A stretch of 64,000 nucleotides of DNA from Blasia pusilla. Lineage: Eukaryota. Below, piece after piece: positions 16,901 through 56,465 of the stretch; position 1 is the stretch's first letter; the number at the start of each line of letters is the position of its first letter. The notes below the pieces were generated by a model. The model did no database searches and was not told the DNA's origin. It was given only the letters and a program-made list of their open reading frames with translations. Position numbers and translations under genes: made by a program. Location: positions 20,460,001 through 20,524,000 of the forward strand of contig CM114271.1 in NCBI GenBank assembly GCA_050084515.1. Direction: 5' to 3'.

Positions 16901-17195
16901 ATAGAGATACATTGAGATATGCGACCATTCGTGGAGGAGGTTATTGTCCAGGGATTAGGAGGTTTCATCCTGGAGATTACGTGTATTTACAGCACGCGGC
17001 ACCCACGACGCTAGATGTCACTGCAGGCGCCGCGATCCCACGTGTGCGCGAGGTATTACCGACCGAGTCCTCATGTTGGAGGGACGGGATGGTATGGTTT
17101 GGAAGGATCATGTGCGCAATTGTGCGCCATGTCATCTTTCAAACATAGATGGGACGGTGGATCCGAGCTTGGCAGTGGTACCTGCAGGCTTGAGG

Positions 17196-17333
17196 TGTAT
17201 GTTGTGCGGATCTACGAGGGGACCAGCCACCATGTTGGTATGTGATGGTTGTTCTCGAGGGTGGCATATGTTATGTCTGACCCCCCCTCTTGATGTGGTT
17301 CCCACGGGACGATGGATGTGTCCGAGATGTGTA
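17196..17333 (+). other. PHD zinc finger at the integrase C-terminus
   Basis: CMLCGSTRGPATMLVCDGCSRGWHMLCLTPPLDVVPTGRWMCPRC, a C4HC3 pattern. Also present at 47664-47810. Confidence 0.95.
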
Positions 17334-17412
17334 TAGGGCAGTAGGTCATGTCAGAGAGATGTGATATTTTCTATCTGGAGTTAGGGGGATCCAACTGCCA
17401 ACTAGGGGGGTG

Positions 17413-18137
17413 GTTGTGTGATCTCCATGTATATGTATGAGTTGATTTTTTGTACATGTGTGGATCGACCTGTGTGTGGGGAAGATCGGTGTTGTGTGGT
17501 GTAGATGTGACGAGCGATGTATGTTGTGTAGCGATATGTATGTGCACGACAGGTGTCACATCTGAGTTGCCGATAGGACGAGATCTATCGTGGATAGGGC
17601 GTAGGAGCCAGCGGACTATCTTGAGTATAACTTTGTCCCACGGTATCGGATGAGGTTGAGGATAGGTCCATTGTGTCAGGAATGTTGTTCCTAACAACTT
17701 TCATATTGAGGTCTTTTACAGCCGGGTGACTTATTGACCAGGTCACCCGCCCCTGTTAACCTGTGCGCACGGGTTACCAAGGGAAGGGCTATTTTTAGGG
17801 GAAGAGCCTTTTGGCTCTTCCTAACCCTATATAAGAGAGGAAGATGGCTTTCCTAAGCCATCTTTCTCATGTTGGGCCATTGGAGCACCTCCCTTGTATG
17901 TGTGTGAGCTAGGACTAGGGTGCTAGCGTCCGGATTCCTTGATAGCACAGGGTGGACGAGGCTCAATATCCCGATGTAGATTGAGGAGTGAAGTTTTAGT
18001 TGTGTGATCTCCATATATATGTATGAGTTGATTTTTTGTACATGTGTGGATCGACCCGTGTGTGGGGAAGATCGGTGTTGTGTGGTGTAGATGTGACGAG
18101 CGATGAATGTTGTGTAGCGATATGTATGCGCACGATA
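17413..18137 (+). repeat. 3' split-direct-repeat block B1-gg-A2-B2 of copy S1
   Basis: 139-bp B at 17413-17551 and 17999-18137. A (17554-17998) matches the 5' termini of copies S2 (32643-33096) and S3 (55858-56193) and contains a TATA-like ctatataag at ~17827. Confidence 0.92.
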
Positions 18138-26200: not shown

Positions 26201-29200
26201 ATCAAGGGCTGCGCTCCCTAATCAAGTAAGACGCGCTGCGGGTGGTACACCATACCTATGGAACTAACCAAGTGAGACACTCCTGCTTGGTTATTCAACA
26301 ACACCACACTTGGTGTGATCATGGCTCGCTCTATCGCTGGCCTAGCCGGCATATCTACCAACTTCATCGTGGCCGCATGCCATGACTCAGTGCGGGACAT
26401 CCCGAGCACCTGCTCCAAGGGCAAGTCCACCACCTCCTCAACTACCTCTGAACGAGAATTAGTCACCTCTACACGCTCACACAACATGACGGCCAGCCGG
26501 AACACCTCCGCTGGTCCAACTCCCAATGTCGCCAACTCCATGGCTGAAAATAATGGAGTGTGGCTCACCCTAGTGGCCACCTCCAACAACATGGTCGACA
26601 CTGGCTCCTCCCGAGCTAGCATAGGATTCGTCTCTCCAACTCCTTGACGTCGATGCACCTATCCCACCTGTGGGTACTACTGGTCGTCAAGGCACCATAG
26701 ACGATGTATGTAGTGCCTCCGATAATGTGAGCAATTGGGGAACCCTGGCCTGCCGCCCATCAGTCCCCTCCTGTGGGTCAATCTCAATCCCATCTCTTGA
26801 TGGCTCGGTTACTCTTGCAGCACCCCGAGTCACCACCTCAACCTGAGCTGCACTACACATAAATCCCATCCCCACAGAATCCTCACCAGTATCGTGGTAA
26901 GATGTGGAAGTTAGCGCCACACTAGCTACTCTCAGCTCCGCGCTTGCCTGCAACTGCATCATCGTCATGGTAGCAATCCTCTGCTCCAACTGATCGATGC
27001 GCATAAGGAGGGTTGCATCGGGTGCACGTCCTCCATCTCTTGTGACTGGTGATGGTACTACCACCATGATCATCTACTACTTGATCTCCACCAACTCTCT
27101 CGCCCCCAAGTTCTCTACCTACCTCTGGACGTACCTCATGGCAAAGATCATGACACCTATCCCTAGTGTGATCATATCGGTGAGAATGGTCACACTGAAA
27201 CTGTGGTGGGGCCATCCTCTATGGCTCCTGAGCAATTGGAGGCGCTTGTGGCCCTCTCCCATGATGTGGGCAGTCCCTCTGCCCAAGTGATCCACCACAC
27301 GTCCAACAAGCCAACCCTAGTCCTTGCTAGGAAACATATGTCGGTATGGGTTTTTGCCTCATCAGCTCACGATATCCGCCATGCTCTCTAGGCCCACTAG
27401 CCCGCTCCTATGGTACTAGTGCATGTTGGGGCACCTGTGGGTCTACTCCTACTCGTCGAATCCTGTGGTCACCACCTGCTCCTCACTCATGTTGAGCTCT
27501 ACCCGCTAAGACAACTCGAAGATCACCTTCAATGTGGGCTTCGCCGTGTGATGCAACATCGCATGCCAAACTCTCCTCTGTAGCTCCTCATCCAACACCT
27601 CATACCAATACTCTACTGACTGTGCCTCAGTCACCCCATATGTGGCAAAAATCAATTGTCGCATGCGCATGAATCCCTCCCTCATACTCTCAACCAATCT
27701 CCATTAAAAATCTTGTAAACTCTTCAGCTTGTCGATCCGCACGCCCTGGTAGCTCCTCCCAAATTGTCAAAAGAACTCCACTGTAGGATTGAAACTCGGT
27801 GGTCCTCTACCACAAGAAGTCTCTGCCACCTCACCACTCTCACTGCCATCCTCTCCATCTAGTCCTCGGGCTGATGGTGTAGGCCTCTCTGCCCTCACTA
27901 TCCCATCATACGCCTCGTAGCCACTAGTGGACATATACCATGAAGCCCAATATACCCTCCAGGCATCGATCTCTACAGAGTATAGAGATTAGAACTCCAT
28001 GTAGTTATCCATCACCGGACCCTCCAAGTGCTGGAACAACCCCTTCCATGCCATAAAAGGGTTGAATCGCATAGGGGCCGTATCTCCTGGAAGTTGCACA
28101 ACTTGTCGAACTCCCGGATGAAGTCATCTAAATCTATGGTGCCTACCGCACCCAAGAAACGACGCATGCCCCGGTAGCCCATGTCGTCCATCTCTCTCCA
28201 CATTTCACTGTTCTCGTCCGTGATCTCGTTACCAGACTCGCTGTCTAGTGATGATGATCCAGCCACTAATGGGAGTCAGGGTGGTTCCTCACTTGAAACA
28301 CCTCGATAGCTCACACCACTCCGTGTCACTCCATTACCACTACTCCTACTACCCCATTCTTCAAAACTCTAGAAGAACGCCGTGATGATAACCCTGTCTT
28401 ACACTCTCAAGCACTTAGACTCACCAAGAGTCTCCTACACTCCTCACTAGCTCACCTACGCTAATGGTAATCCCGTGACGACACAACCAACCTCATGCAC
28501 ACTCAACACTTGGGCTCACCATGAGCCTCTCGACTAACTCACCTAAGTCATAAACATACTCTCGGGTCATACACAAGACCCCTACTCGGCAACCGCCATA
28601 TATCCACAAACATGCTACACATGCATGGAGACTACACTCGTCACCATCGCTACACCCATCTAGCACCAGCTACTACTCGACCCAACACTCTCAATCACAC
28701 AAGATAAGTGCGGGAAAAGGGACTCGAATGGGTAACCTGATCACGCCATCCAACTTATTGCATAGTCAACACGGACTCCTCCATGTGATACGACAACCTC
28801 CGCAACACGAAATTCTCCTCAACACATGTCAAACCTCCCATCAATGGATGCAGACTACTCGTCGGCATCAACACGTGTGTCTCCATCACAACCCTTGCAA
28901 ATCCCAGTCGGTGAAGAACTAATGAGTCGACCCCCAACCAACTCGTAATAACTGCCAAACTCTCGTCGTGAATCCCACCATGCTCGCGAAACACCAAGTC
29001 TCAAAATGCTCTCCTACTGCGTAACTCAACGCAATCACATCCGCCCCCCCTCAAACTGGTAGCCTAAACCAACCACGTCCGACTTCTTGCTCCTACCACG
29101 TCTGCTCCTGCCTCTCCCACGTCGGCCTTGCTCGACTACATCAACTACCACCAGCCTGGTCGGGGTCAGGGTTTAGGGTTTAGGGTTAAGGTTTAACCAT

Positions 29201-29540
29201 CCCCACCCAGCATAGCTGCTGGCCTCGGGTGGGGTGGGGGAGGGGGGGGGGGAAGGCCTTGGTCCGCGGCCCTATGCGGGCCTCCCTAACTTCCAAAAAG
29301 AGGGGGGAGGGGGGCCAAAACACAATGTGTGTGGCCCTACCACCTTCAAAACTCCGCCTCCAGCTCCCGACTATCCTCTCTCCCAACTCAACTCCGCTAC
29401 ACAACTTGACGTCCCCAACTACGTCTTTTCTTTCTCTCCTGCCTTAACTCATATGTGGGTCCGCTGCCCTATGCGGCAGCAACTCCCTGCTCTCCCTTCC
29501 TTGAACCGCGACTGTGCTCTCACTACAAGCACGCCTCCCT

Positions 29541-31750
29541 ACCATGGGATGCCTCGGCCTTGCAAACCCCTGAATCCGACGGGTTGCAGTAGGTGGGTTT
29601 AAGGTTGCAACACGTCGGGACCCGACGGGTCGTAGAGTCGTTCATGGGATGCCTCGGCCTTGCAACCCGTCTGGTTCCGACATGTAGCTTATTTCTTTGA
29701 CTCCTGAGTTATTTTCGTTCCCTTCTAACATTGCCGTCGTTGCAGGGATTGAACATTCATGAAATGCCCTCTGCCCCAACACAAGTGGAGCAGAAAGTGT
29801 TCATTCCTCCTGGAGGTCGTCACAAGCATGGCAACAAATTTCACTTGTGGAGGCTTGCCAACAAGACTAGGCAAGAGCAATGCTACAGTCTGCAGCATCC
29901 CATATCTTCCTCACAAAAGGCATAACAAAAGGAAGGGGGTCGTCGATCTACGAGCTCTATGTGAGGGCGGTTGTGAGATCTGGTGATGAAAAAATGTACG
30001 TGGAAGCCTTCAACCGGTGCGTAGCTGGAACTCCCCTCGAGCAAGACGTACACATTGGTGGGGATATTCGTGGGCGGGTTTCAAGACGTCCCATACAGAT
30101 GGTGGTAGAGTAGTCCGAGCGAGACTCGTGGAGACCAGATAAGTATCTTGACTTCAGGCAGGCGTAGAGGCAGCATCGAGGAACGAATCCGGTGATTGAT
30201 TTGGATGAGGAAATTACGCCGCCCAGGTATTCGGGGACCGTGGACCCGTCCCAAATCCGTGATGGAGTTACTTCTCCAAAATCAGTGAATGTTTTATTTC
30301 AAAAGCCCTCCGTTGCTGGAAGTTCGCAACATCCGATCGATCAACAATATGGGATTCCGGTAATGGAGGTGGATTGCAACCTAAAACGGTGGCATATATC
30401 TCGGAGCAACCCAGGACGTGGACCCACCTGCAGGGCAGGATCTAATGGCATTAGGAGAGCATGCAGCACTTTCCTAAGTAAGAACTGTACAAGGACTAGA
30501 CGACCACTGCCTGGGTTTTGGGGACTCAAAACCTTTGATCGTTTCACGAGGACCGGGGATCAATTGAAGTACTTCTTCTGCCCAAATGAATCTTGCGCTT
30601 TCCGGAAGTCTTATCCGGCTGCCATTGGAGCTCCGGGGAATACCCCCACGATTTGGCCCATCGCCGCAGGTACGAACTGCACTCAAGACGAAGTGGACAA
30701 TCTTACAAGTGCCGATTTCAGACTCGTAGACGGGGGAAGTTCGGAGCATGTTCGCATTACAGAGACCTTCGCATTTCATATTCAACCCAAGATTGATGTC
30801 AACATGTACTCGGAGAAGGTGGATGATATGAATCCACTATTTTTGTTTGAGTCTAGAAATGGGGTGAAGAGAAACAGAATGTGTAGGCCAACGGTGGAGA
30901 GAGCAAAGCGAATTGCATCAGCTCGGGAGGCAAAAATGGAGATCATCGCCACGAAATATGTCTTGAGTGGCAATGGAATAGGAAGGATGTATTGGGTCAG
31001 GAACAACACTGTAAATTCAAGTGTCACAGGGGTGTATGTGGTGCACATTTGTTGCTTTCCCACATGTTCATGTGATGACTTTGTCCAAAGAGAGACAAGT
31101 GGCAAAAGGTATTTCCCTTGTAAGCACATGTACTATGTGTTGCTGGTAGTTTTAAGAGAGTCGGAGGTAGGAGTAGGAATCCACCAACCAATTATGTCCC
31201 TCAAAGAAGTGCGAAGTATTTTAAACAAACCACTTTGAGGATGCAAAATGAGGTTTTAGATTGTACTTTTATTTTTCAGTTTTGTATATTTTGCGCAATT
31301 TGCAACGGGTCGGACTCAGATGGGTTGCCAAAATATGGAAGAGAAAAAAAAATTGTGGGATTGCTTAATAAGTGAACAAAAAATGCAAAAAAATCACACA
31401 AAAAGTTTCCTCTCTTCAACCCAACGGAAACTCTCTTAAAAAAAGTATCTATTTCGGTTGAAGGTAGTTTCCTCTCTCCTCTCTCCTCTCTTCCTCTCCT
31501 CTTACCGCACCTTAGTCACGCTCTCAACGCTGATTTGCATCCAAAATCAGTGTTGAGAGCTCTCTGCCTCTGAGACCCATCAGGTCCCGACGTGTTGCAA
31601 CCCTAAACCCACCTACTGCAACCCGTCGGATTCAGACTGGTTGCAAGGCCGAGGCATCCCATGAATGACTCTCCGACCCGTCGGGTCCCAACGTGTTGCA
31701 ACCCTAAACCCACTTACTGCAACCCGTCCGATTCAGACGGGTTGCAAGAA
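29541..31750 (+). mobile_element. Putative Mutator-like or foldback insert with tandem ~100-bp inverted terminal repeats around a SWIM-finger ORF
   Basis: Repeat units at 29543 and 29643, inverted units at 31583 and 31684. Lies inside the 5' UTR of S2. Confidence 0.55.
30192..31238 (+). CDS. SWIM zinc-finger protein, probably the 3' part of a decayed transposon gene
   Basis: C-terminal YVVHICCFPTCSCDDF...YFPCKHMYYVLL (CxC...CxH). The same frame extends upstream to ~29745 through several stops. Confidence 0.6.
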   Translation: MIDLDEEITPPRYSGTVDPSQIRDGVTSPKSVNVLFQKPSVAGSSQHPIDQQYGIPVMEVDCNLKRWHISRSNPGRGPTCRAGSNGIRRACSTFLSKNCTRTRRPLPGFWGLKTFDRFTRTGDQLKYFFCPNESCAFRKSYPAAIGAPGNTPTIWPIAAGTNCTQDEVDNLTSADFRLVDGGSSEHVRITETFAFHIQPKIDVNMYSEKVDDMNPLFLFESRNGVKRNRMCRPTVERAKRIASAREAKMEIIATKYVLSGNGIGRMYWVRNNTVNSSVTGVYVVHICCFPTCSCDDFVQRETSGKRYFPCKHMYYVLLVVLRESEVGVGIHQPIMSLKEVRSILNKPL

Positions 31751-31849
31751 CCTGTGGCCACTCTGGAAGATCCAAGTGCAAGTCATCCCAAACCCATCCG
31801 GGTCGGTTAGTCAGATCTTGGATCAATCAGCGGGCTAACTTTCCGAGTT

Positions 31850-32100
31850 CTCGTCTCGGTCTCTCATCAAGCTCAACCGTCCTAGTTTCGTGGTTTACAA
31901 CACGGGCAAGTCTCAAAAGACTTGGGACAGACTTTCTAGTTGGTTCAGGAACCTCAAACGGCATTTCGCGCTTGGCAGTTCCAAGTGTCCGATGGACATC
32001 CAATGAGTCCCTAACCGAGACTCGCACAAAGTGAATCTCGGGTTGGAATCCAAATGTGGCGTACAAAGTCCACTCCCTTGGATCAAGTTTGGGTTTCGAG
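31850..32100 (-). repeat. Fragment of a diverged chromovirus-type LTR
   Basis: tctcatcaagctcaacc...gacttgggacagactttct aligns with 10400-10480. Confidence 0.65.
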
Positions 32101-33571
32101 TTCCAACTATGAAGAGGCCTCCCTCAAGGTATGTGGTCCTAAAGCCCCTACTTCGACTCTGCACAACCCGCTCCAAATTCTCGGGCCCCGGCTACGCGCT
32201 CCAGTGGCTATATGCATGCGTGCGTGCTCCAAGGGCTATATGCATGCGTGCGTGCTCCTTTGGCTGCCTAACCCTAGTTTCTACATATGTGACCTAAACC
32301 TAGTCCAAGCCCTAGCGCCTTTACTTTATAGCCCTCTGATGGCTGCAAGGCAAAGCTCTCTCTTTCCCGACACGCGCCACTCCTCAACGACGCTCACTCG
32401 CGTACTACATCCGAGCACTCTTGTCCACCATCTGCTACTGCTCTACCCTAGTCCGCTACCAGAAAAAATCAGGAGAAAATGAGTAGCACTTCCGCGCATG
32501 GTCTTTCAAACGGAAAAATGACAACAAAAAAAAGTCAACCAATGTCTCCAGGGGCTCCCCACCACCTGCAAACAATAAATTCCCTACCCCCTCATATCTA
32601 TCTTATGTAAAATCAAGAGTAGTAAAAATGGCTCACCCCGCCTAAAACTCCACTCATGAATCTACATCGGCATATCGAAGCACATCCACCCTCTACTATG
32701 AAGGAATCCGGATGCTAGCACCCTAACTCCTACACACCCACACACGTCTATGCAAGAGAGGCACTTCTAAGGCTCAACATGAGAAAGATGGCTTGGGAAA
32801 GCCATCTTCCTTACTCTTATACCCTTGGGAAGAGCCAAAAGGCTCTTATACCCTAAATAGCCCTACCAACGGTAACTTGCATGCACAGGTTACCGGGTGA
32901 CCGTTGACTTGGTCAACGAGTCATCTCACAGACTAAAACAAAAATAGGGAAATTGCCATAAACGACATTCCCGACATTACAGACCTATCGCCAACCTCAT
33001 CTGACATCTCGGGACAAAGTTACACCCAAACAGCCCGATGACTCTCTATGTCATCGACGTGATAGAACTCTACCTACCTCGAAATAAGATGTGAAAAATG
33101 ACTCATGCCACTCAAACCAAAGCTCCTAATGTGAAATGACTACTATTACTCTGTAGTTATCAAAGTAACACTCTACATTAGAGTGGGCAAGACCTCAATA
33201 TGTACAAACTTGACTTGCAAGGATATGAATGTCCATTGAAGCAACACGGTTTATGCTAATAGGATATGTAGCTGGAATACTTCTATAGTGTCTCTAATGG
33301 AGAGCAGAGCTCAACGACTCTAAAATATGAAGTCACATAGTTGTTTAATGCTTACAAAACTTATGCGCTAGGAAGAGAGCAGATAAGTATATGTGCTTTG
33401 ACTTGTAAGAGTCCACCCATGACCGAGATGAAGAAGCAAGAAGGTGACTAATCTGTCCACCTTTGATGCGGCTAAAGAACACATGACAATCAACCTCTCA
33501 TAACCACAACAACTTGTCATAGCAACCACAAAGAAATGAGCAAGGAGAGAAGAAGAAATTGATATGTTGTT

Positions 33572-36500
33572 TCTTATGTCTTTTGCGATGGATTGACGAG
33601 CTTGTGATAGAGTGCCTTCGATGATATTAGAGGACAACCTCAAGATGTCATGGATGACCTGTTGAGGCATCAAGTAACCTGAGAGAGCAAGTTTCCCCTT
33701 CGTTTCGGCTCATTTGGAGCCATATAGATAAAATTACTATTTTGGGTAAGCTATCGTTATAAGTGGAATTTAGTTTCTACTTTGGGAAGTGGCCCTTGAT
33801 CCCCTCCAGCAAGTCAAGAGCCAAGGAGGTGACCTGCGAGCATAGGTTACCATAGAGAGAGCGTGAGAGAGGGAAGGAGGTATACCCAAGGAGAGAGAGC
33901 TTTGGAACTCATTCTCTCTTTGTTGAACCTCTTGGCATGAGGCGGACGAGCTATGGTCTTCCTTGCTTTGTGAGTAATCCAAGTCTTCTATTAGGAGAGT
34001 GGGTTTGGTTTGACATGAGAAAGAGATGTAGTTGTGTGCATATTATGAGAGATATTTGTTGTGCGCATACACATCACTACATAACATACATCGTTGTCAC
34101 CGAACACACACACAAACACGTACAATCCCATGCTAACTCATGACATCCAAACAACAAGACCAGAAGTACCAAAATATCTCATCAAGTATAACAATGCTCC
34201 ATCAACCAAGACATCGTAGGACTCCGCATCAGTCACTATCGCCTTAGCTCGCACCACGGACTCATCTGTAGGATGTCCTGGGCGAATCCTCACCACGACC
34301 TCATGTTGGGTGATATACTGTGTGGTACTTGCTCCACCCAAGGATGTCTGTATCCGGAATGGACAACGCTCCACATCGGCTCTCGTCAAGCCCAATCCTC
34401 TGAATGACAATTTTCCCAACATCATGGGTTGCGCTCCTGAATCCAACAAGACGCGTTGCGGACTAAAAGCTCTACTTCCGGGACTCACCAACTGGAATAC
34501 CTCTCCCCGGTTATCCAGCAACACAGCACCAGGAGAAGCCATGACATGCTCTATCATGGGTCTAGCGAGCATCTCCGCCATCCTAGCAATCGTAGCCTGC
34601 CATGGATATGACGTGGATGGCCCGATCATCCGCTCCAAGGGCAGGTCCATCACCTCCTCTGCAATCACCTCTGAACGTGATGCAAGAACTCCAACTCCAC
34701 ACTCACATAGCGTAGCGACCAGCCGGAACACCTCGACGGGCGTACCTCCCAATGTCATAACATCGGAAGCAGAAAATAGCAGAGCACGGTACACCATCGT
34801 GGCCGCCCCCAACATCGTACTCGACACATGCTCCTCCTGAGCGTCGGCAATAGGAGTTGTCGCACTTGTTTCTCCCATTTTCCTCCATGCCTACACACCA
34901 ATAACATCACCAACTCTCCGGGAATTCTGATTAGGACCCATCAATGGGATCCTCATAGCCTCGGACAACGTGAAAGATTGAGGAAGTCTGGTCTGTTTCG
35001 TGGCTTTCCCCACTTTGGATCCAACTCTGCGACTGCTCCACACGTCATAATTGCGGCGGCCTCCATCTGGGCAACCCCGCACATCCAACTAGGGTCCTCC
35101 ATATCTGTGGCTGCTCCATATGATGTTGATGCCACGGATCCGGCATCGGGTAACCTCAATGCCATAGCGGCAATCTGCTCATGTAGCTGGTGTGTATGAG
35201 TAGGCATCCTCGCCTCATGCCCAGTGTCTCCCTCGACGCATCTAGATGGTGGGACTCTACCTCCTCCACGGGCAATTCCACCACCATGTCAAGCAACTTT
35301 AGCTCCTCGTCCCCCAATGGGACCACCTGGTGCACAACCTCTAGCCCACCCGTACCGGCTAGTGGCTCTGGTGCCCTCTCTAGCTCTCGGTCCGGATGTA
35401 ACTCAGGGTGTAAACTGAAACACTTGGCGCATGTCTGACCATACCTCTAAAAATAGGCACACTGATAACCTCTTGGTGCAGCACCATCTCTTCCTCCATG
35501 ATGAGGCACACGTATATGACCCTTACGAGTGCAATTATGCTGATGATGGGCTCCACCACATGACCAACAAGTAATAGTAGGCGGCTGCTGCTGAGCCGCA
35601 TATGAAGGCACATGTCTCTATGGCATGGCCTCATGGTATCCTCCCTAAGCTCATGGTGCCACAGTCAACCTATCTCGAAGTCTATGTTGCTGCACTGGTG
35701 GTACAGGCAATCGTGACTTCTCTCGCCTAGAACCCATGGTGGATGCGCTCTCCTCCGCCATGTTGCGCTTAATATTCTTGGCGGTCCTAAAAAAATCTCT
35801 CAATGTAGGGGAGGTGTTCATAGGAAGCACCCCTCCCGCACCCGTGTCTGCTGGGTCCAATCCATGCATCGCGTACCATGACTGGATAGCCTAAGCCTTT
35901 GTCAACCCATGAGTGACGTTGATCAACTGGCACAAGCGAGTGTAAGCATCATGCAAACTCTCACCCGGGCGCCTGTGGAAGTTGTGGATGCTCCGCAACT
36001 TCTCTGTCTGTACCCCCTCGTAGCTCGCCCTCAACTCAACGAAGAACTCAACCACCAGGTTGAAGCTGGGACGAACCCGACTAGACGGTACAACTGCTCC
36101 AGTGCGAGTGACCCCTCCTAGTAGAAGAGGAAGTAGCCTCTCCTGACTCCTCCTCCTCATCTGGGAATGGCTCCGTCCATGACACATAGTGTGGGTTATT
36201 GTAGAGTCGTCATGCCTCAATCTCTTGGGCATGTCTGTGGGAGAACTCATGGTAATTGTCCATGGGCGCCCCCTCTAAATGCTAGAACATACTGCTCCAT
36301 GTTGTAAACGGGTTGAACTCTCTAGAGTTCCCAGCCTATTGTGAGTCATACCAACTTCTAAACTCTGTAATGAAGTCGTGTAGCTCTAAAGCGCCTACAC
36401 CACCCAAAAACCTATGCGGTTCTCTACCCCGGTCGTCCATCTTGTACGCCCAACTGGTAGGACCACTCAATGTGTACGGTGGATCACTAACACACTCCTC

Positions 36501-38954
36501 TACACGCTCCCCCTAGTCTGAAGATGACACAAAAGGAGATCGAGGTGGTCTCTCACGTGGAGACCCTCGAAACCTCGCACCACTCGGGGTAAACCCTTCA
36601 GAGCTACTCTCAGGTCCACTACCTTGCCTCTCAAAATCCCAAAAAGGATACGGCGATGACCCTCGTGCCCTTCTCACACGATCATTCTCAATCTCGCGAG
36701 TGATCCCTCAATCAGTCAAACTAAACATGCGGCACTCAATCTCTACTCTCTCACTGAGACGTGTGCTATGCGGCAACAAGCGGCGTGGTCAAAAAATCAA
36801 GTGATTTATCGTCTCATCGACAAATCATCCTCAACTCTGGACATCCCACACAGGTCTATGTCCCCTAAACCCATACATCATCGATGCTCTCAGCATCAAC
36901 ACAAAACCCAATATCCCAAATAACTTCCCAATACCAGAAATCCCTCACACGTGCAGGGTGAGAGACCAGAATGAGTAACCTAACAATAATGTCGATGGCA
37001 CTCCTTGGCAACTGCAAATCTCAACCCCAACTCGGTCGTGAAGACAACTCCTCCAATCAACAAGTCGTACTCCTCTCGTACTGACACTGCTCAAACCTCC
37101 TCAATATGCGGTGCGGATCCAACAGTACGATGCGGCACTGGCCATATGAAATGGCTACAGAACAACACCACACTCGATAATGGGATGCGTCACTCTGCGG
37201 CATACCCTCCTCAATCAGCAATACACACTCTCTGCTCCTTAGTGAAGGAGCGGCTCCGCGATCTAGACGGTACGGTGCGGCCACGAGCGGCACGACGTGG
37301 CAATCGACGACGCGTTGCGACTACGGGCATCACGGCACAGTACTCGATCTTCGTCGAGCGGCCACCAATCACAACATAGCAAAATGAAATGAAAACTCAA
37401 ATACCATAACCCAAGCTGACCTGCTATCACTCGTTGATGTCAAAACTACGATGACGATGACGCCACAAAAAGTACGTGGTGGCGGCGCAAGTCAGAGAAT
37501 CATTAGTTGCCATGGAAGACCGTCCATTCCGTAACGGTGGCAATGGCAACCAATGGAGGACAATGGCCGAACACCGCTCTGAACGGTGGTAGGTGCCAGC
37601 GGCGATTGACGGTGGACGGCGGACGATGGACCGTTAACGGCGCATTGTCGACAGTGACGGTGGATTGTTGATGGTGACGGTCGACCGTTGATGGTGACAA
37701 TTGACCGTTGATGGAGGACCATTGAAGGCAACGGCCGCCGTTGGCACGGCAGCTGGTTTAGGATTTGAACAATTTTACCCTAAAAATTGCCTAACAATGG
37801 CAGTTTTGCAAAATCACCCATAATGTTTTGCTTGCAGCTCCAAATCACGCATCGTCTATTGCACATCGTGCATAACTTCACGATCTAGCATGGCATCAAA
37901 AACTATTTTGAATCGGACCTTCCAATAAAAATTGAAGGGGACTGTTGTTAATCCCAACGTCTCTTCTCCTACAAAAATTTTGGCAGCGTTTCCGTGCTGA
38001 TTTCTCCCAATGAAAATATAAAACCTGTGAAAATACAAATCAGCAAGCTATGTGGTGCTCCCGAGAGCACCGTCATGGGGCAACCCGCCCCCATACTCAA
38101 TCCCTATCAGAAATTGGGAGTGCTTCCGCGCGCCACTTTCTCAAATGAAAAATCGGCACACAAACGTCAAAACAACGTGCCTCTTGCTCCCTTGAGCACT
38201 CCCATGAGCCATGAAGCGGGGAACACGGTTACCAACTTGCACCAAACATAGAGCAACCAGCGAGCTCCTCCATGAAGCTCTCTCACCCTCTCATTCTCTC
38301 TTTGTAAAATAAAGTGAAATCTCTCTTACAACACCATAGCTCTCACATGTGTACACTCTCATATGTCTCTCTCAATGTCAAACCAAATCCACTCTCCTAA
38401 TGAGAGGCTTCGGTTACACTCACAAGACAAGGGACCATAGCTCCGCCACCTCGTGCCAAGAGGTTCAACAAAGAGAGAATGAGCTCTCAAAGTCTCTCTC
38501 CTTGAGGTATACCCCTCCCCTCTTCCAAGCTCTCTCAATGGTAACCTATGCTCCCAAGTCACCTCCTTGGCTCTTGACCCAATGTAGGAGGTCAAGGGCC
38601 ACTTTCCAAAATAAAAGTTGACCATATACTCAAAATGATAATTATCTAAAATAGTAAGTTTTTCTCAATATGGCTCCAAATGAACCGAAACAAAGAGGAA
38701 AACTTGCTCTCTTAGGTTTCTCGGGGCCTCAGCAAGTCATCCTCGACCGCCAGAGTCTCCCCTCCACTACTTGCGAAGGCGCTTTACTAGATCTCATCGA
38801 TCTATCCTAAAAAACGTGACATATTTGAGAGATCTTGATTTATTGGAGATACTTTTGTACACGATCGTCTCTATGGTTTGGATGTCATGAGTTAGTATGG
38901 TATCTTGTAGGTTTTTGTGTGTATTTTGTGAAAACGATCAGTATGCGCACAACA
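33572..38954 (+). mobile_element. Solo A-B unit of split-repeat subfamily 2, interrupted by copy S4
   Basis: A part 33572-34056 and B part 38822-38954 are the reverse complement of 48612-49406. TSD TGTT at 33568-33571 and 38955-38958. Confidence 0.8.
34057..38821 (-). mobile_element. Split-repeat subfamily 2 copy S4, non-autonomous (A1-gag-PR-deletion-B)
   Basis: Ends tgttgtgcgc (34057) and aacgtgaca (38821). TSD TATT at 34053-34056 and 38822-38825. Protease VLLDSGAQPMMLG at ~34440 and gag at 35400-36600 are homologous to S1-S3. Confidence 0.85.
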
Positions 38955-47000: not shown

Positions 47001-47200
47001 GGAATACATGTGGATGTTTCATGATGACCCATAGCACCACCCATTGGAGGGAGGACTAAAAACCATTGTGGGAAGAGTAATAAGAGATACCAAACATTGA
47101 TATAATTGGGATCACAACTAACCTTTCTAATGAGACAAGTAATACTTGTTGTGTGATGGGGCTAATATCACTAAAGGAGACCTAATGGAAAGAGGGAAGG

Positions 47201-50200
47201 TGTCGTGCGCATACATATCACTACACAACATATATCGCTGGTCACATCTACACCACACAACATTGATCTTCCCCATACACGGGTAGATCCACACATGTAC
47301 AGAAATCAAATCATACATATACATGGAGATCACACAACTCCTCAACCTCATCCGACACCGTGGGACAAAGTTACACTCAAGAGAGTCCGCTAGCTCCTAC
47401 ACCCTATCCACGATAGATCTCGGCCTATCGGCTACTCAGATGTGACAACTGTCGTGCGCATACATATCGCTACACAACATACATCGCTGGTCACATCTAC
47501 ACCACACAACACCGATCTTCCCCATACACGGGTAGATTCACACATGTACAGAAATCAACTCATACATATACATGGAGATCACACAACCGACCCCCTAGTT
47601 GGAAGTTGGATCCCCCCAACTCCAGATAGAAAATATCTTATCTCTCTGACATGATCTACTAGCCTATACACATCTCGGACATATCCATCGTCTTGTGGGA
47701 ACTACATCAAGAGGGGGGGTCAGACATGACATATGCCACCCTTGAAAACAACCATCACATACCAACATGGTGGCTGCACCCCTCGCAAATCCGCACAACA
47801 TACACCTCAAGCCTGCAAGTACCACTGCCAAGCTTGGACCCACTATCTCGTCCACGTTTGGAAGATGACATAGCGCAAAATGGCGCACATGATTCTTCCA
47901 AACCATACCATCCCGTCCTTCCAACATGAGGACTCCGGTCGGTAATACCTTGCGCACATGTAAGATCGTGCGTCATGCAGTGATATCTAGCAACGTGGGT
48001 GCTGCCTGTTGTTAATACACGTAATCTCCAGGATGAAACCTCCTAATCCCTGGACAATAACCTCCTCCATGAATGGTCGCATACCTGAATGTATCTCTAT
48101 GCTGAGCAATAGTTAAGTTCTCAAAGGCCATGGGCATAACTCTACGAAAAATCTCTGCCCTCTATGAACACGCTTGTACCCACACATCTCGATCATCAAG
48201 ATCTAACACCTTCGCCATGTCACGTCGAATAGCTGCAGGTAAATGTGGCTCTCTCCCAAAGAGCAAAAAGTACGTGAAAATGACGCCAAGGATGCCTACC
48301 GACTAAAGGTAACCCACTAGCCAACCTCAAAGGTCCCACTCCCTAGCCCCCGCTGCAAGCCATACTTGTGCAATTCTCTCTTCACCGTCTGTACCACTCT
48401 CTCCGCCAACCCATCCGCCTCAGGATGATCTCTGGACGTGGTGCGGTGACCTATCATCGCCTGATCACACAAGCCTGAAACTCTCCCCTGAACTCAATAC
48501 CCTGGTCAGTCAACACCTCCGCCGGTGCACCAAAGTGACTAAGCACACGATCTAGAAACGCATAAGCTGTTCCCTCGCTCGCCTTGTCTGGTAGTGCCAC
48601 CAACTCTATCTTGTCGTGCGCATACACATTGCTACACAACATACATCGCTGTCACCGAACACACACACAAACACGAACATAACTTGGACTTGAGAAGCGG
48701 ATGAGGCATTCAACCAAATCAAGGAGATCCTATTGCAAGAACCAATGTAGAAGCTATTGGAGTCTTACAAACCATTTGAGGTGCATACTGGTGCTAGTAA
48801 TTTTGCTATTGCAGGAATATTGGTGAAGGATGATCCCATGCTAACTCATGGCATCCAAACAACGAGACAAGAAGTACCAAAATATCTCCAATTAAAGTAA
48901 GATCCAATCTCTCTCTCCACCATCTCACAACATAGCTCTCAAAGATGTGCACTCTCTCTCATGTCAAACCAAACCCACTCTCCTAATGAGAGGCTTGGGT
49001 TACACTCACAAGGCGAGATACCATAGCTCCGCCGCCTCATGCCAAGAGGTTCAACAAAGAGAGAATGAACTCTCAAGCTCTCTCTCCTTGAGGTATACCC
49101 CTCCCCTCTCCCAAGCTCTCTCCATGGTAACCTATTCTCCCAAGTCACCTCCTTGGCTCTTGACCTGATGTAGGAGGTCAAGGGCCACTTACCAAAAATA
49201 GAAAGTCGATCATATACTTAAAATGGTACTTACCTAAAATAGTAAGTTCCTCAATATGGCTCCAAATGAGCCGAAACGAAGGGGAAACTTGCTCTCTCAA
49301 GTTTCGTGGGGCCTCAGCAAGTCATCCGCGACCTACTGAGCGTATCCTCCACTACTCACGTAGACACTCTATTAGATCTCACCGATCTATCCTAAAAGAC
49401 GTGACAATTCACTTGGAGAAATGCTCCACCATGACCAACACGTACCTACGATGATGCCCCGTCAATGGCAAAGGTCCCGCAAAGTCTAAACTCCACCGAT
49501 AACCTAAACCCATAATCGGCAAAGGATGTAACTGCAGAGTGGGAGCATTGAAGGATGCCCGTATCTATCAAACCATACATCTGGCCACAAACTGCTGTAC
49601 CCGAGTATGCATGCCGCGCCACCAATACTGAACATGGAGTAAGTTGTAAGTACGCTTTACTCCGAAATGTCCCAACTCCTCACGCGCATGTCGCAATACA
49701 CGTGCTCGCTGGGAAGGATGAGGTATCACTCGTATCCTACCATCTCGCCATATCCGCAAAATGTGAGTCCCCTCCCACCTGAACCTCTTGGCTCTCTGTA
49801 GGATCCGATCCCGCCCCTAGCACTCATCAGACTTAATGACGCCAATGCGCAAGAACTCCACAACCTCCCCGTCGTCATGGATATCATGACCAACTGTCGC
49901 CTCCTCACTGACCTCCGGATCCAAAGACTCATCATCCAACCCCACCATTGGAGTCATCACTTGCGATTGACCTACCATAGTCAACCAACAAAGATAGGCA
50001 GATGCATGCCAATTGGGCACCATCTCCTCATCACTCTCTTCGTGCCATGGAGCTCTAGTGTCATCTCTCTGACTTAGACATGGGTTACGACTCAACCCAT
50101 TCGCATCCTGGTTTAGCCAACTTGGCCTATGAACCACCTCAAACTCATACTCATGTAGTAATAGAGCCCACCTAGCAAGCTTTCCGGTAAGCTTTTCGGA

Positions 50201-53200
50201 CTTCATCAACCACCTCAACGGTGATGATCAGTGATAAGTGTGAAAGGGTTGCCGAATAAATAGCACCTGAATGTGCCACGGCCCACACTGCAGCCAAGCA
50301 CTCTCCCTCATAAGAATTGTACTTCACCTCTGCAATGTTGTTCGATCAGCTTGCGTAAGCCACAACGAACTCCCTCTCCTCATCATCCCTTTGAGTAAGC
50401 GGTGCTCCTAGACCCAACATGCTCCAATTCGTATGTAACTCGAATGGGCGACCCCTAAGTGGTCTCTGTAAAATGGGTGAGGACGTCAACCTGTCCTTGA
50501 GCTCTTGAAATGCTTTCTCCTCATCATCTCCCCACAACCAAACCTGATCAAGTCTCCTCAACAAGGTCAAAGACTTTGCGATCGCACTAAAACCCTTGAC
50601 ATACCATCGATAGAAGTTCGCTAGTCCAAGAAACACTCGAACTCGACTCACATCTGTAGGGCGTGGAATCTGCGCAATAGCCTCCACCTTTGTCTGCTGA
50701 ACGCCTAACCCACTCAGGTATATGGTGTGTTCCAAGTATTTAATATGCTCCTGAAAGAATCTGCACTTGCGTGGATGTAACTTGAGTCCATGTAACTGCA
50801 ATCACCGAAACACCTTCTCTAGGTGTCGCTCATGCTCCTCAACCGTGGAACTGAAGATAAGAATATCATCTATGTAATATCGTTCAAAATCCAAGCTAGC
50901 TAGAATCCTATCCATCATTCTCTGAAACTCTGCAGGCGCATTCTTCAACCCAATGGTAAGAACGGCCACTGATACAAGCAATCTCTCCCAAACCGATCTA
51001 TCCCCCATAATGTTGTCTTCTCCATGTCCTCCAACCTGATAGGAAGCTGATGATAGCCAACACGGAGATCTAAAGTACTAAAGGTCCTTGCATGCCCTAC
51101 CGCATCAAAGATCTCCTCAGGAGTAGGCATGGCCTACCGATCCGACCTCGTTTGTCGGTTGATAGGACGGTAATCTCCACACATCCGCCTATCCATCCAA
51201 TTGCCATACATATCCTTCTTCGCCGGCATGACTATGGCAGATGCATACTCCCCATATGATAACTTCACAAGTCATGACTCCTACTCTAAATCAAGTCTCG
51301 TTCCATATCAGAATAACTGTAGGGTCGACGAAAGCTTGGCGCATCACTAGCCAACTCAATCCGTATCTTGGGACCCTTCAGCATACCCAAGTCTCTCAAA
51401 CTGAAGGCAAAATAACTGACGTGCCCTCTCAAAAATGCCGTCGCTCTCCTCCTATCAACTTGAGACCTATCATAGGCTCCCAAGTCTCCATCGTGACCTC
51501 ACTCAAAGAGGATGCAACCTCTGGCTTTGTTTGCTATGTAGCAACCCTAGCCACCTCCGCAACAACCACTCTACTATGACCTCCTACCCCATGATCCACA
51601 TCCAAAAAATGAAAATTTGCTACTCTGGCCGCCTTTGCACTCTCCGCTCCAACGACATCCCAAGAAGCCCATGGGTGCCTATCTCTCCTCGTCCCGCCCC
51701 CAGCCAATGCGTGTACAGACCTTGTATGCAATGGTCTTACTGCAGATACCGGCAACAACTCATGATAGCTCTGGACCAATCTCCCTACCTGAGGTAATGA
51801 TACTCGCCGCGCGGTCTCATCTCTCTCCACATAAAGGTACTCATGCACCCGTATGCCCGCCTGCAATACCGCTGCCAATCTTGTGCTAATCCCTCCGAAG
51901 AGATCTAACACCCTAACACCCTCTTCTAGACACTGCCATACAACGGGTGTGGTATCCAATGGGGTCAACGTCTCCACTTTAGGGGCCCGATCGCCACCTG
52001 ACTCTCGTTGCTCCGGGATAAAGGCATGACTCCATGCCTGCCTCTCGAGGTTGTCGGCACTCCTCTGTAGCTCTCGAGTCGTACCCCACAATGGTGAAGA
52101 GGTCTCGCCAACATGGGAAGAGACACTCGCCATGGCCTGTCTCTCCGTGGAACTATCCACTATTGGGACATCCTCCGCATGTGCGCTCCCCTCCAACAAC
52201 TCTCCTGGCTAGCTAACACTACCTGTGAAAGCTGCCAACGTGGTCACAGACTCGTCTCGTGATTGACCACCTCATCGCAAACTGCATGGGTAACTAACTC
52301 ATCCGGCCGTCACCTGACTGCCACCCTGGTCGATAAGCAACGGTGTCCTCCTAGAAGTCAAGGATGAATCCTAGGGGATATAACACTATACTCCCCACCA
52401 ACACATCGTACGACTCAGTTGGTATCGTAATCGCATGTGTGCGCACCATAGCACTATCCGTCGCATGCTCTGGCTGGAATCTGACAACTATCTCCTGTTG
52501 AGTCATATACTGCATGGGTGACACGCCCCTAATCATGATCTGTATCTTGAAGGAACAAGGCTCAATGTCGGCCTTCCGTAACCCCAACGCTAAACACGCC
52601 AGCTTCCCTAACATCAAGGGTTGCGCTCTCGAATCAAGTAAGACGTGCTGCGAATGGTATACTGTCCCCGTCGGACTAACCAAACGAAATACTCCAGCTC
52701 GGTTATCCAATAACACTACTCCATGTATCACCACTGCTCGCTCTATGGCCGTTCGAGCTGGCATATCTACCAACTTCGCCGCCGCCGCATGTCATGACTC
52801 TATGGGGGATGTCCCAAGCACCGGCTCTAAGGGCAAGTCCACCACCTCCTCAACTACCTCTGAACAAGATGTAGTCATATCTCCACGCTCACACAACGTG
52901 GCGGCCAGCTAGAACACCTCAGTTGGTCCAACTCCCAACCTTGCCAACTCTATGGTGGAAAATAGTGGAGTCTGGCTCACTCTGGTGGCCACCTCAACAC
53001 CATGGTCGACATTGACTCCACTTGAGCGGACATAGGAGTTGTCACTCCAACTCCTCGTGATGTCGATGTACCTTCCTGACATGTAGGTACCGCTGGTCGT
53101 CGAGGCACCATCGATGGTGTGTGTAGTGCCTCCGAAAATGTGAATGACTGTGGAACCCTGGCCTGCCACCCATCAGTCCCCTTCGATGGGTCAATCTCAA

Positions 53201-56193
53201 CTCCACCTCTGGATGGCTCAGTGCGTCTTGCAACGCCCCCAGTCACCACTGCAGCCGCCTCAACCTGAGCTGGACTACACATGAACCCCCTACTAGCGAG
53301 ATCCTCACCCGTGTGAGGGTAAGAGGTAGAAGTTGGAGCCACACTAGCTGCTCGCGGCTCCGTGCCTTCCCTAAGCTGCATCATTGTCATGGCAGCAATC
53401 CTCTGATCCAACTCATCGATGCGTGAGAGAAGTTCCGACTCTGGTTCTCCTGCTCCATCTCCTCTGGCTGATGGTGGTCCTCTACCACCACGTCCACGAG
53501 TAACTCCCACACCTCCTCCAGGACAACCGCCCCCTGGCCCTTGGCCTACCTCTGGACGTGCCTCTCGATAAAGGTCAAAACATCTATCCCTAATGTGACC
53601 ATATGTGTGGCAATAGTCACACTGGTAATGTGGTGGGGCCATCCTCTATGGCTCCTAAGCAATTGGAGGCGCTTGTGGTCCTCTCCCATGTTGTGTGCAG
53701 TCTCTCTGCCTATAGGCCCCTCCACACGTCCAAGAAGACAACATCGGTCCCTGTTGGGCAACATATGTAGGTACGGTTCGTTGCCTCATAGGCTCATGGT
53801 ATCCACTCTGCTCTCTGGGCACACTGGCCCGCTCCCGTGGTACTGGCACTCACTGTGGCACATGTGGGATAGGTCACCGTCGCTCGTGGACCTGTCGACT
53901 CTCGAGAAAATCCAGCGGTCACTACATGCTCCTCACTCATGTTGAGCTCAAAACGTTCAGACAACTCAAAGATCACCTTCAATGTGGGCTTCGTTGTGTG
54001 AATCAGCACCGCATCTTAGACTCTCCTCCGTAGTTCTCGATCCTGAACCCCGTACCAATACTAGACTGACTGCGCCTCAGTCACTCCATAGGTACCAATG
54101 ATCAACCTCCTCATGCGTGTGAATGCCTCTCACCCGATCGTCGCTGAAAATCTTATAGACTCTTCAACTTGTCAGTACGTACGCCCTGGTAGCTCTTCCC
54201 CAACTATCGGAAGAACTCCACTATGGGACTAAAGCTAGGTGATGTCGTCCATCTCCTCCCAAGTGATATTGGCTCCGTCTGCAATCTCGTCACCAGATCC
54301 GGTATCTAGTGATGATGATCCAGCCACGGATGGATGTCAAGGTAGCTCCTCACTCGTAACCCCTCGATATCTCACTCCACTCTGTGTCACATCACTAGTA
54401 CTACTCGCACTCTAAACCCAAGAAGAACGCCGTGATGACAACCCTGTCTCACGCGCTTAAGCACTCAAACTCACCGAGAGTCTCCCACACTCCTCACTAG
54501 CTCACCTATGCTAACGTCAATCCCTTGATGACACACCCAACCTCACGCACACTCAACACTCAAGTTCACCATGAGCCTCTCACTAACTTACCTAACCTAT
54601 CGACACACTCGGGTCATACATGCGACCCCTACTCAGCAACCGCCATATATCCACTAACATGCTACACATGAAAAGAGTCTACACTCGTCACCATCACTGC
54701 ACCCACCTAGCACCAGCTACTACCCGATACCCAACACTCTCAATCACATAAGATAAGTGCGGGAAAAAGGGACTCGAATGGGTAACCTGATCATGCCCTC
54801 CAACCTACTGCACCGTCAACACTCACTCCTCCATATGGTATGGCAACCTCGCAACACGACACTCTCCTCGACCAACACATCGAACCTCCTGTCAGCATCG
54901 GTGTGTATGCCTCCATTAGAATCCTTGAAAACACCAGCCATGCTTGAAAAAGACTACGTCATGATAAAATCTCTTCGCCCACTCCAAAATGCGCCTCGCA
55001 ACCTCAACTCAACCCCGTCCAAACGCAACCCTGCACGTCTATGACGACACCCGTGCCTCTACTACGTTACCCTACTATATCCGTCCTGGCCCCTACTACA
55101 CCCGCCGCTCTGCCCCTACCTAGTATGATCCAACCACGTACATGATTACTACGTCCCTACCACATCCGCTCCTCCACGTCGCAACTACGTAAGGGAAAAA
55201 GGGCCAAGGGCTTGGCCCGGGTCCCTATGGCCCTAGAGCCCTAAATGCGGGGGGAGGGGGGGACTTCCCAAAGTGTGGGAAGGGGGGGCCCGCATCCCTA
55301 TGGGCCCTAAATGCAAGGGGGTAGGGGGATGCTGGGCTGCTCCTAAACTGTGGTAAGAGGGAGGGAGGGCCTTATAGGGCCCGCACCCCTATGGGAATTA
55401 AATGCGGGGGAGGGGAGGGGAGGGGAAGGGACAGGAAAGGCCGGGGTTTCGCGCCCCCGGCTCCGTCTTAGCTCCAGCTCCGGCTCGCAGTCACTTGCGA
55501 CCTAGCCGCGCCTAGCCCTGGCGGCTACAAGCTCTCAACGTTTTCTCTCTACACTCCCGCCGTGCGTCGTTCTCTCGACGCTCCAACACTCTACGTTGCA
55601 CCCGAGCGCTCCTGCGTGACTTCCACTCTGTTGTTGTCCCTCGTCAACCTGCACCAGCAAAATCTGAGAAAAATGGACAACCCTTCCGCCCTCGACCTTT
55701 CGAACAGAAAAATGACCAACGCCCGCAACACACGCATCTCCAGGGGCTCCCGACAGAGGCAACTCGCTTGCCTACTTGCAAACAATGAATTCCCACTAGC
55801 CCCCTGACATCTTTCTCATGTAAAAATAAATAGTAGTAAAAATGGCACACCTTGCCAAAAACTCCACTCCTCAATCTACCTCGGCATATCGAGCCTCGTC
55901 CACCATGTGCTATAAAGGGATCCGGACGCTAGCACCCTAGTCTTATCTCATATACATAGAAGAGAAATGTTCTAATGGCCCAACATTAGAAAGATGGTTT
56001 GGGAAAGCCATCTTCCTCCCTAAAAATAACTATCCTCTTGATAACATGCGCGCACAGGTTACCAGGAATGGGTGACCTGGTCAACAAGTCACCTGGTTGT
56101 GAAAGATCTCAACAAGAAATTTACTAGAAATCCGCTGGACTACTACGCCATATTCACGATAGATCTCGACCTATCGGCTATTCGGACGTGACA
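47201..56193 (-). mobile_element. Split-repeat family copy S3, complete end to end (A1-ORF-B1-A2-B2), with the MTase catalytic part deleted
   Basis: A1 ~55858-56193, B1 47450-47587, 2-bp spacer, A2 (internally deleted) 47339-47447, B2 47201-47338. TSD AAGG at 47197-47200 and 56194-56197. Domains gag/CCHC/PR/MTase motif I/RT(YIDD)/RH/IN/PHD at 47664-54350. Confidence 0.93.
48612..49406 (-). mobile_element. Solo A-B unit of split-repeat subfamily 2, inserted in the S3 integrase
   Basis: tgtcgtgcgc...gacgtgaca ends. Interrupts FSKW|IELVAL. Flanks atct and attc derive from a host ATCC 4-bp TSD. Confidence 0.85.
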
Positions 56194-56465
56194 AAGGAAA
56201 CCAATTTAGCTTAACCACGGGGCCAAATCCAGAAAATATTAACTTTCGATTGAACACAAATCTACAAAGTTTAAACAAACGTTTAACCACACGACGAGCT
56301 ATGAGAGAGAATAAAGAAAGATCTGTGGAGGAAGGGAGCGATGGGTTCAAGAGAAATGCCCCAACAACGAAGAATCGTAGTAGAGAATCCCATGGGTGAT
56401 CGACAGGATGAAGTAGTACGTGTCGAACGCAGAGATCGTGAGAATTGCAGCGTAACGTCGCGTGA

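Follow-up and report, generated by a model that had tools for sequence, protein, structure and literature searches.

Split direct repeats and integrase-type ends, apparently out of register, in a Ty3/Gypsy-type retrotransposon family of Blasia pusilla

A stretch of 64,000 nucleotides (nt) from Blasia pusilla (assembly GCA_050084515.1, contig CM114271.1, positions 20,460,001 to 20,524,000; hereafter the window) carries a retrotransposon copy, designated E, in which the enzymes and integration ends of a Ty3/Gypsy element occur together with split direct repeats. We interpret E as a decayed copy of a high-copy Ty3/Gypsy-type family whose repeats and integration ends are out of register, and consider this explanation, taken as a whole, to be reasonably probable. 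Layout and enzyme set are directly shown, as are the target site duplications (TSDs), the joint between the two repeat segments, a and b, the places where the priming signals lie and the lack of separate lineages of the repeat copies. The coding strand of E is the minus strand; the element is described below in coding orientation, with coordinates referring to the plus strand of the window.

E spans positions 47201-56193 (minus strand) and reads a1 - internal region - b1 - NN - a2 - b2, with TGTC...GACA ends. The tetranucleotide AAGG flanks it on both sides, at 56194-56197 next to the 5' end and at 47197-47200 next to the 3' end. The 5' terminal repeat a1 (55858-56193, minus strand), whose coding strand begins with TGTC, has suffered two internal deletions, one of which takes out the TATA region. 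At the other end, b1 (47450-47587, minus strand; coding strand ending in GACA) is the internal copy of the 3' repeat, and b2 (47201-47338, minus strand), the terminal copy, adjoins the TSD with its own GACA end. The two are direct repeats of 138 nt each and differ at 6 of 138 positions. Between them, repeat comparison identifies a2 (47339-47447, minus strand), which shares about 84-85% identity with the outer part of a1 over 55-64 nt; it is short because of a secondary deletion of 335 nt between two short, similar direct repeats, the a2 of another copy in the window (S1, below) having the full 444 nt. On the plus strand of the window b begins with TGTC and a finishes with GACA, and the 2-base gap between a2 and b1, read from the sequence at 47448-47449, makes this a GACA-NN-TGTC joint of the two ends of E. 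The 15-nt terminus of b occurs nine times in the window when up to 3 mismatches are allowed, against a mean of 1.02 in shuffled sequence, and none of 100 shuffles reached nine. Immediately upstream of b1 lies a polypurine tract (PPT)-like G run (47588-47598, minus strand). In most copies the repeat is prolonged beyond a by a further 36 nt, here termed x (55822-55857 in E, minus strand); x was delimited from a read joint (below) and from a contig consensus after position 47587, and is the end of the repeat as set by reverse transcription. The remaining internal region (47588-55807, minus strand) holds decayed gag, protease, Dnmt3-like, reverse transcriptase (RT), RNase H, integrase and PHD frames, split into short open reading frames (ORFs).

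Two further copies in the window bear on this arrangement. Copy S1 (11247-18137, plus strand), 88-91% identical to E, has its 5' part cut off at 11247 by another repeat and shows the same internal - b - NN - a - b order at its 3' end. Its PPT (17402-17412) stands directly before b1 (17413-17551), followed by NN (17552-17553), a full-length a2 (17554-17997) with a TATA box at 17828-17835 and a putative self-primer site at 17859-17870, and b2 (17998-18137), all on the plus strand; x is missing from its a2|b2 joint. Copy S2 occupies 25273-33100 on the minus strand including its TSDs, the element proper lying at 25277-33096 between two copies of AATG (25273-25276 and 33097-33100). It consists of a-internal-b only: b lies at 25277-25414 and a plus x at about 32609-33096, both on the minus strand, the NN-a-b block is missing, most of pol is deleted, and the copy is an older one. 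In both E and S2 the leader follows a directly, with no b there. The first-pass annotation of this stretch had proposed the A1-ORF-B1-A2-B2 layout, the TGTC...GACA ends and the 4-bp AAGG duplication of E, together with the matching 3' block and full-length a of S1 (17413-18137). All of these are borne out, and the layout proves to be a property of the family, recurring in S1, in reads of the species and in 17 of 38 related 3' ends. We also considered that b alone might be the LTR (long terminal repeat), with NN-a as a leader; the TSDs flank a...b, nothing precedes a1, and the idea was abandoned.

The encoded enzymes are those of a Ty3/Gypsy element. A Pfam scan of the ORFs of S1 yields the Pol order RVT_1 (14191-15003, 1.4e-26), RT_RNaseH (15359-15640, 5.2e-26), Integrase_H2C2 (15644-16279, 1.1e-06) and rve (16192-16728, 1.2e-14), all on the plus strand; this is the RT - RNase H - integrase order of Ty3/Gypsy elements, and it is found again in L060, a better-preserved metagenome relative with the same domain set. 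The L060 integrase has the D27/D87/E122 spacing of a D,D35E enzyme, and its core matches the Ty3 integrase (Gag-Pol) with E=5.4e-7. A PHD finger (16959-17333 in S1, plus strand; Pfam PHD 1.5e-11) is fused in frame to the integrase C-terminus, at the place where chromoviruses carry a chromodomain; rve and PHD lie within one ORF of 374 aa in L060 (9988-11109). Between protease and RT sits a Dnmt3-like C5 cytosine methyltransferase (12996-13478 and 13766-14101 in S1, 51715-51737 in E), 846 nt having been lost inside this domain in E. The S1 ORF at 12996-13478 (plus strand) matches PF00145 (DNA_methylase) at 5e-10, with 39.8 bits against a cut-off of 22, and the best PDB matches of the L060 methylase are to DNMT3A (4e-08). 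S1 retains the motifs PC and ENV, and PC is present in 11 of 12 locus rows. Relatives with PF00145 also have RT, rve and PHD, and the nearest named methylase-bearing ones are hypothetical proteins of Marchantia polymorpha and Sphagnum fallax.

No match to a tyrosine recombinase (Phage_integrase) or any other recombinase was obtained by Pfam scan in 20 ORFs of S1, E and their neighborhood, in L060 (18 ORFs of 90 aa or more, both strands), or in two ORFs of L004, another metagenome relative; the profile search that the first-pass annotation had suggested thus turned up no such domain in any ORF tested, and the Gypsy enzymes with DDE integrase that it had inferred alongside 4-bp TSDs are present as RT, RNase H and integrase (H2C2 and rve, D,D35E). 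To our knowledge, elements of the DIRS order integrate without TSDs; neither this mode of integration nor the recombinase was found in the E family, which has their A1-internal-B1-A2-B2 split direct repeats. As in Ty3/Gypsy elements, a DDE integrase goes with short TSDs and TG...CA ends, and the integrated ends and TSDs are those of such an enzyme.

The generality of the layout was assessed with the integrase core of S1 as query against metagenome contigs. This gave 80 loci in 61 distinct groups, with integrases 64-83% identical to that of S1, which were searched with pieces of one of them (L014: a, b, leader and 3' internal region); duplicates were removed and four end labels were set by hand. 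Among 38 distinct 3' ends, 17 read b-NN-a-b, two are variants, and in 19 b is followed by unrelated DNA. All 14 distinct 5' ends read flank - a - leader, a being followed by a primer binding site (PBS); b follows a in none of the 14, and neither b nor a second a lies upstream in any of them, one of these ends (L021/L022) having a truncated a and little upstream sequence. In place of the two identical terminal LTRs of a Ty3/Gypsy element, E, S2 and 14/14 related ends thus have a alone at the 5' side. The full A-B at most 5' ends that the first-pass annotation had named as the mark of ordinary LTRs was seen in 0/14 related ends and 0/2 in the window.

Perfect 4-bp TSDs flank ten of 12 full-length copies (E, S2, L014, L049, L052, L060, L004, L024, L048 and L069). 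In the four full-length b-NN-a-b copies from the metagenomes (L014, L049, L052 and L060) they read AAGG, AATG, TCTC and CATA, the copy with AATG (L049) having a degenerate a1 start. Six full-length metagenome copies are of the b-only form: L004, L024, L048 and L069 have perfect TSDs, L071 matches at 3/4 positions and L038 is mismatched. That the b-only form exists is clear, since S2 shows it. Two metagenome loci, L015 and L025, share 99.4% identity along the 2.7 kb that finish with b1, where one continues into NN-a-b and flank and the other into a different flank; the pair represents two young insertions that differ in form, or else a chimera of assembly. In the 22 loci (not deduplicated) where the spacer NN was read with a pattern of fixed 2-nt gap, its length is always 2 nt and its sequence GC in 12, AC in seven, AT in two and GT in one. 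NN is thus inherited rather than random, being GC or AC in 19/22 loci, and the notion that it is made anew in each cycle was dropped for the same reason.

Raw reads from a run labelled as the same species (about 2 Gb sampled) were mapped onto E. Depth over the internal region is about 1000, and the family must be abundant in its host to reach this value from about 2 Gb of reads. Among the best-supported joints, 257 reads connect the start of b to position 55822 (47587->55822, a-x|b), so the common repeat unit is a plus the 36 nt of x, followed by b. Another 382 reads join 56119 to 47339, from which it follows that other copies have a full-length a. At the terminus of b, 816 loose-end reads run into sequence without consensus (agreement 0.33): these are diverse host flanks with no common PBS. 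If 5' ends of the form a-b-PBS were common, a shared PBS would be expected after b, and the loose ends show none. Depth drops over the leader of E, to about 5 at 55082-55388 and 58 at 55389-55695, against about 1000 elsewhere; S2 can be aligned with a section of this leader (55480-55821). The drop reflects either very fast evolution of the leader or membership of E and S2, on their 5' side, in a minor subfamily.

A G-run purine tract lies immediately before b1 in E, S1, S2 and the inspected metagenome loci. In the window family, a predicted PBS of 12 nt (55808-55819 in E, minus strand) lies two bases downstream of x and is complementary at 12/12 positions to a site in a, the first T of the TATA box lying 32 nt upstream of the start of that site. 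The related metagenome family has an 11-mer directly after a1 that matches its complement in a at 11/11 positions, and in nine of 13 copies the best match of the PBS falls at the homologous site. Counted from the first T of the TATA box, the distance to the complementary site is 32-33 nt across both families; the sequences differ and the arrangement is the same. From its position and complementarity, the PBS is predicted to be of the self-priming kind. A tRNA-type PBS after a1, suggested by a TGG start, was also entertained and dropped; it would need a tRNA beginning with A-A, and the read joint puts the end of the repeat 36 nt further on.

A PBS after the 5' repeat and a PPT before the 3' repeat are thus both present, but they flank b-NN-a and not the integrated ends. 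With a PPT at b1 and a PBS at a, ordinary reverse transcription should duplicate b-NN-a(-x), and the a-x|b joint of the reads falls exactly at the predicted end of such a repeat. The repeat made by reverse transcription is therefore out of register with the integrated ends, and at the a2|b2 joint the last bases of that repeat are connected to its first. The first-pass annotation had inferred a split-repeat replication like that of tyrosine-recombinase elements; the priming signals point instead to LTR-type reverse transcription of b-NN-a. Two metagenome loci (L030, 3360-3878; L033, 1411-1929) contain b-NN-a and the PBS, after which the initial 181 nt of a are repeated in inverted orientation, the turn point being a palindrome formed by a PBS-like arm and its complement. 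Such a structure looks like a fossil left when plus-strand strong-stop DNA folded back to act as its own primer.

The repeats are regenerated in each cycle, with no separate lineages of a1 and a2 or of b1 and b2, as far as the low resolution of the comparisons goes. Five copy-specific sites are shared within the pairs b1/b2 of E and b1/b2 of S1, and no site groups the sequences by position. In the related family the consensus of b1 and that of b2 differ in none of their columns (16 loci), the majority bases of a1 and a2 differ in 2/360 columns, and a1 and a2 sequences are interleaved in the tree. In 12 of 16 metagenome loci the identity of a copy's own b1-b2 pair exceeds the median identity to other copies. 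The interleaved tree and near-identical consensus (2/360 columns) also disposed of the idea, suggested by E alone, that a1 and a2 are long-separate paralogues.

These properties suggest the following cycle. Reverse transcription would be primed beside a1, the 5' end of the RNA itself probably serving as primer in the manner of Tf1, and the plus strand would begin at the purine tract beside b1, so that the repeat duplicated in the process is b-NN-a(-x). The DDE integrase would then bypass the outer ends of this repeat and open, inside it, the GACA|NN|TGTC site, which resembles a head-to-tail fusion of two ends of the element; after insertion the copy would thereby come to have a first, b last and a 4-bp TSD. 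For the full form, a-internal-b-NN-a-b, one could envision that the ends of the repeats in the cDNA become joined and that opening then takes place at the site within what was the left repeat, the a|b joint resulting either from ligation, which gives a circle with two repeats, or from a template switch of RT from end to end. The b-only form might stem from a one-repeat circle, from cutting at both internal sites or from later recombination between b1 and b2. Opening a one-repeat circle between a and b was considered too, and gives the wrong order. Sloppy end joining as the source of the a2|b2 joint was likewise set aside: the joint is nearly uniform, the exceptions being a 20-nt insertion (L052/L053) and S1 with its missing x. 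It is tempting to speculate that the integrase of this clade normally uses the internal GACA-NN-TGTC joint present in every repeat, acting on joined-end (circular or concatenated) cDNA, in which case each provirus would represent a circularly permuted cDNA; this proposal is a tentative one, possible rather than likely.

Several observations weigh against this account. The main difficulty is that a mirror form, a-b-NN-a-internal-b, would be expected to be equally common, provided that either internal site of a two-repeat circle can be opened, and is absent (0/14 5' ends, one of them uninformative); a simple circle model consequently needs some added asymmetry or a fast loss of the mirror form. 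Within E, a1 and a2 show about ten differences over their first 60 nt, against 6/138 for b1 and b2, and a2 is closer to the a2 of S1 (7/109) than to its own a1, which could reflect local decay or a recombinant 5' part. Among the metagenome loci, a copy's own b1-b2 pair is the nearest in only 1/16, and a1 and a2 are sisters in the tree in only two of four pairs, the resolution being low in both comparisons. Some of the b-only metagenome contigs could be assembly collapses of b1 on b2. The low depth over the leader of E means that the joint from a to leader of the abundant subfamily was not directly seen, and the evidence from reads consists of the best-supported entries, 15 among 479 joints and 24 among 6052 loose ends. 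Finally, where transcription starts, what serves as primer and where polyadenylation occurs are predictions from sequence.

How the full form arises could also be explained by direct synthesis. RT itself would produce a-...-b-NN-a-b, as proposed for PAT and Ngaro, from an RNA running from a1 into b2, with template switches on b1-NN-a2 rebuilding the termini; the integrase would then receive linear DNA with TGTC...GACA ends, and neither a circle nor internal cleavage would be called for. The layout equals that of split-repeat elements, the extra block is confined to the 3' side (17/38 3' ends against 0/14 5' ends), as fits directional copying, and the a2|b2 joint is nearly uniform, as if templated. 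However, the PPT and PBS flank exactly b-NN-a and not a...b, the sequences before the start of a and after the end of b are not primer-like, the L030/L033 fossil is a plus strand running b-NN-a-PBS, and we found no workable series of jumps that copies b2 from the tail of the RNA. We therefore regard direct synthesis, in both its copying scheme and its linear integration substrate, as rather unlikely. A lesser chance still, small enough to call the idea improbable, attaches to the view that the basic unit is a repeat-less a-internal-b, as in S2 and 19/38 3' ends, to which NN-a-b has been added as a passenger, an internally deleted unit placed head to tail. Copies with b only do have TSDs of their own (S2, L004, L024, L048, L069). 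Yet in the longer form the TSD encloses the whole a...b-NN-a-b block and not single units, NN is conserved, and a unit that carries no a at its 3' side lacks the terminal redundancy on which strand transfer depends; b-only copies are also expected when b1 recombines with b2, when an assembly collapses the two or when a one-repeat circle is cut.

The remaining two explanations would assign E to a familiar class, and both appear to us very improbable, the second even more so. An ordinary LTR element, with a-b as its LTR, might have undergone a local rearrangement or tandem duplication, here or in a recent master copy, and have lost its 5' b by deletion. Although the a-b unit has LTR-like TG...CA ends and E, which has lost parts of a1 and a2 and gained a nested insertion, is in an advanced state of decay, the layout recurs in S1 and in 17/38 3' ends of the related family, which come from other samples and have integrases only 64-83% identical; b follows a in 0/14 5' ends, the PBS abuts a while the PPT abuts b, read loose ends after b lack a consensus, and b1 and b2 cluster by copy, not by position. 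Conversely, E might be an element of the DIRS, PAT or Ngaro type whose recombinase is unrecognized or supplied in trans, a circle being integrated by site-specific recombination. Split direct repeats are indeed described as diagnostic of those groups in the part of the literature consulted (PMC4157794), but this reading is contradicted by the 4-bp TSDs of 10/12 full-length copies, the TG...CA ends, an rve domain with D,D35E in frame with a PHD finger, the RT-RH-IN domain order, RH being RNase H and IN the integrase, and the absence of any Phage_integrase match in the scanned ORFs. Out-of-register repeats and integration ends thus remain the explanation that we prefer.

Some further features of E and its surroundings deserve mention. 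A stretch at 54890-55480 is specific to E, with no match in S1 or S2, and includes G-rich repeats at 55220-55419. At position 50848, in the RT region, 753 reads depart with a continuation that is 95% consistent, and E is structurally unlike most copies there. Its integrase region is interrupted by a nested insertion of 799 nt (48611-49409), which 725 split reads skip and which is a single a'-b' unit of a related, more abundant family; a TSD of this unit was looked for and is not cleanly readable. The related family, present also at 33607-34180 and 38366-38954, is about four times commoner in the reads (depth about 4600), and its terminal 45 nt are similar to those of the E family. Its reads display the joint types of the E family: end-G/GC-start (320 reads), the start of b' beside a G-run tract (1963) and diverse flanks (1212). 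The first part of the window (1-11247) holds other repeats, for example 263-2034 versus 9477-11244, 6526-7522 versus 10241-11247 and 2593-4142 versus 7909-9461.

The first-pass annotation had suggested that the family may be undescribed, and here it needs correcting. A Gypsy-type element of the alga Klebsormidium nitens, KnitGypsy-Dnmt3, has been reported with repeats of DIRS type and Gypsy domains (de Mendoza et al. 2018, Nat Commun, PMC5890265, legend of Fig. 4c). As far as the published description allows a comparison, it resembles the E family in having a Dnmt3-like domain in the Pol of a Gypsy-type element together with DIRS-like repeats; it differs in its algal host, the nearest named proteins of the E family being those of Marchantia polymorpha, Sphagnum fallax and Calypogeia fissa. 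Klebsormidium was absent among the 27 longer relatives found, in a search limited by shared words. Section 9 and the Fig. 4 legend of that paper contain no TSD, PBS/PPT or mechanism, and do not mention a PHD finger; its supplements may hold more. The passages seen of a 2026 preprint (10.64898/2026.05.21.726589) mention 'streptophytes (Gypsy-DNMT3)', and two later papers cite the KnitGypsy-Dnmt3 layout just in passing. In the literature searched we found no account of TSDs, priming or mechanism for split-repeat Gypsy elements, the 2018 supplements being possibly fuller. The E family is a further member of this little-studied Gypsy-DNMT3-type kind, and its layout is not undescribed. To a published record of one figure-legend sentence for an alga, the present analysis adds TSDs, priming signals, joint types and a cross-species census.

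Split-repeat elements of Gypsy type are apparently widespread in bryophytes. With relatives in Marchantia and Sphagnum, the clade breaks the assumption of two identical terminal repeats on which LTR finders and age estimates rely, and such elements will consequently be mis-delimited, mis-dated or missed. An element-borne Dnmt3 with conserved catalytic motifs and a PHD finger fused to the integrase bear on how transposons deal with host chromatin. Should the integrase indeed open the internal joint, these relatives in a model liverwort would offer a natural system for the choice and cutting of ends and for joined-end cDNA as a productive intermediate.

Among known systems, PAT, Ngaro and TOC elements (DIRS order) share the A1-internal-B1-A2-B2 layout of the E family, and their B1-A2 joint is described, in the text available to us, as the two ends of the element joined (PMC4157794). 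They encode a tyrosine recombinase, whereas the E family has a DDE integrase, TG...CA ends and 4-bp TSDs; if the internal joint is used as proposed, it would be the DDE counterpart to the circle-based integration of tyrosine-recombinase retrotransposons. As regards priming, the E family, with its predicted transcript start, would resemble Tf1, sushi and Tcn1, whose PBS pairs with the beginning of their own RNA and not with a tRNA. Self-priming has been reported for Tcn1 in non-seed plants, and TSDs of plant lineages are typically 4 or 5 bp, according to the sections seen of Neumann et al. (2019, PMC6317226). In contrast to the pair of ordinary LTRs and the chromodomain of Tf1, sushi and Tcn1, the E family has a PHD finger, a methyltransferase and integration ends that lie within the repeat.

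An analogy for the proposed integration step comes from the two-LTR circles of retroviruses, where a head-to-tail joint of ends likewise serves as substrate for the integrase. The integrases of HIV-1 and foamy virus cleave the LTR-LTR junction (CA-spacer-TG) of such circles, a side reaction on a by-product. Unlike the retroviral junction, the joint of the E family would sit in every repeat, with a spacer of 2 nt, and its cleavage would be the normal route of integration. If so, the family would provide a natural case of the long-discarded idea that the LTR-LTR junction is a substrate for integration.

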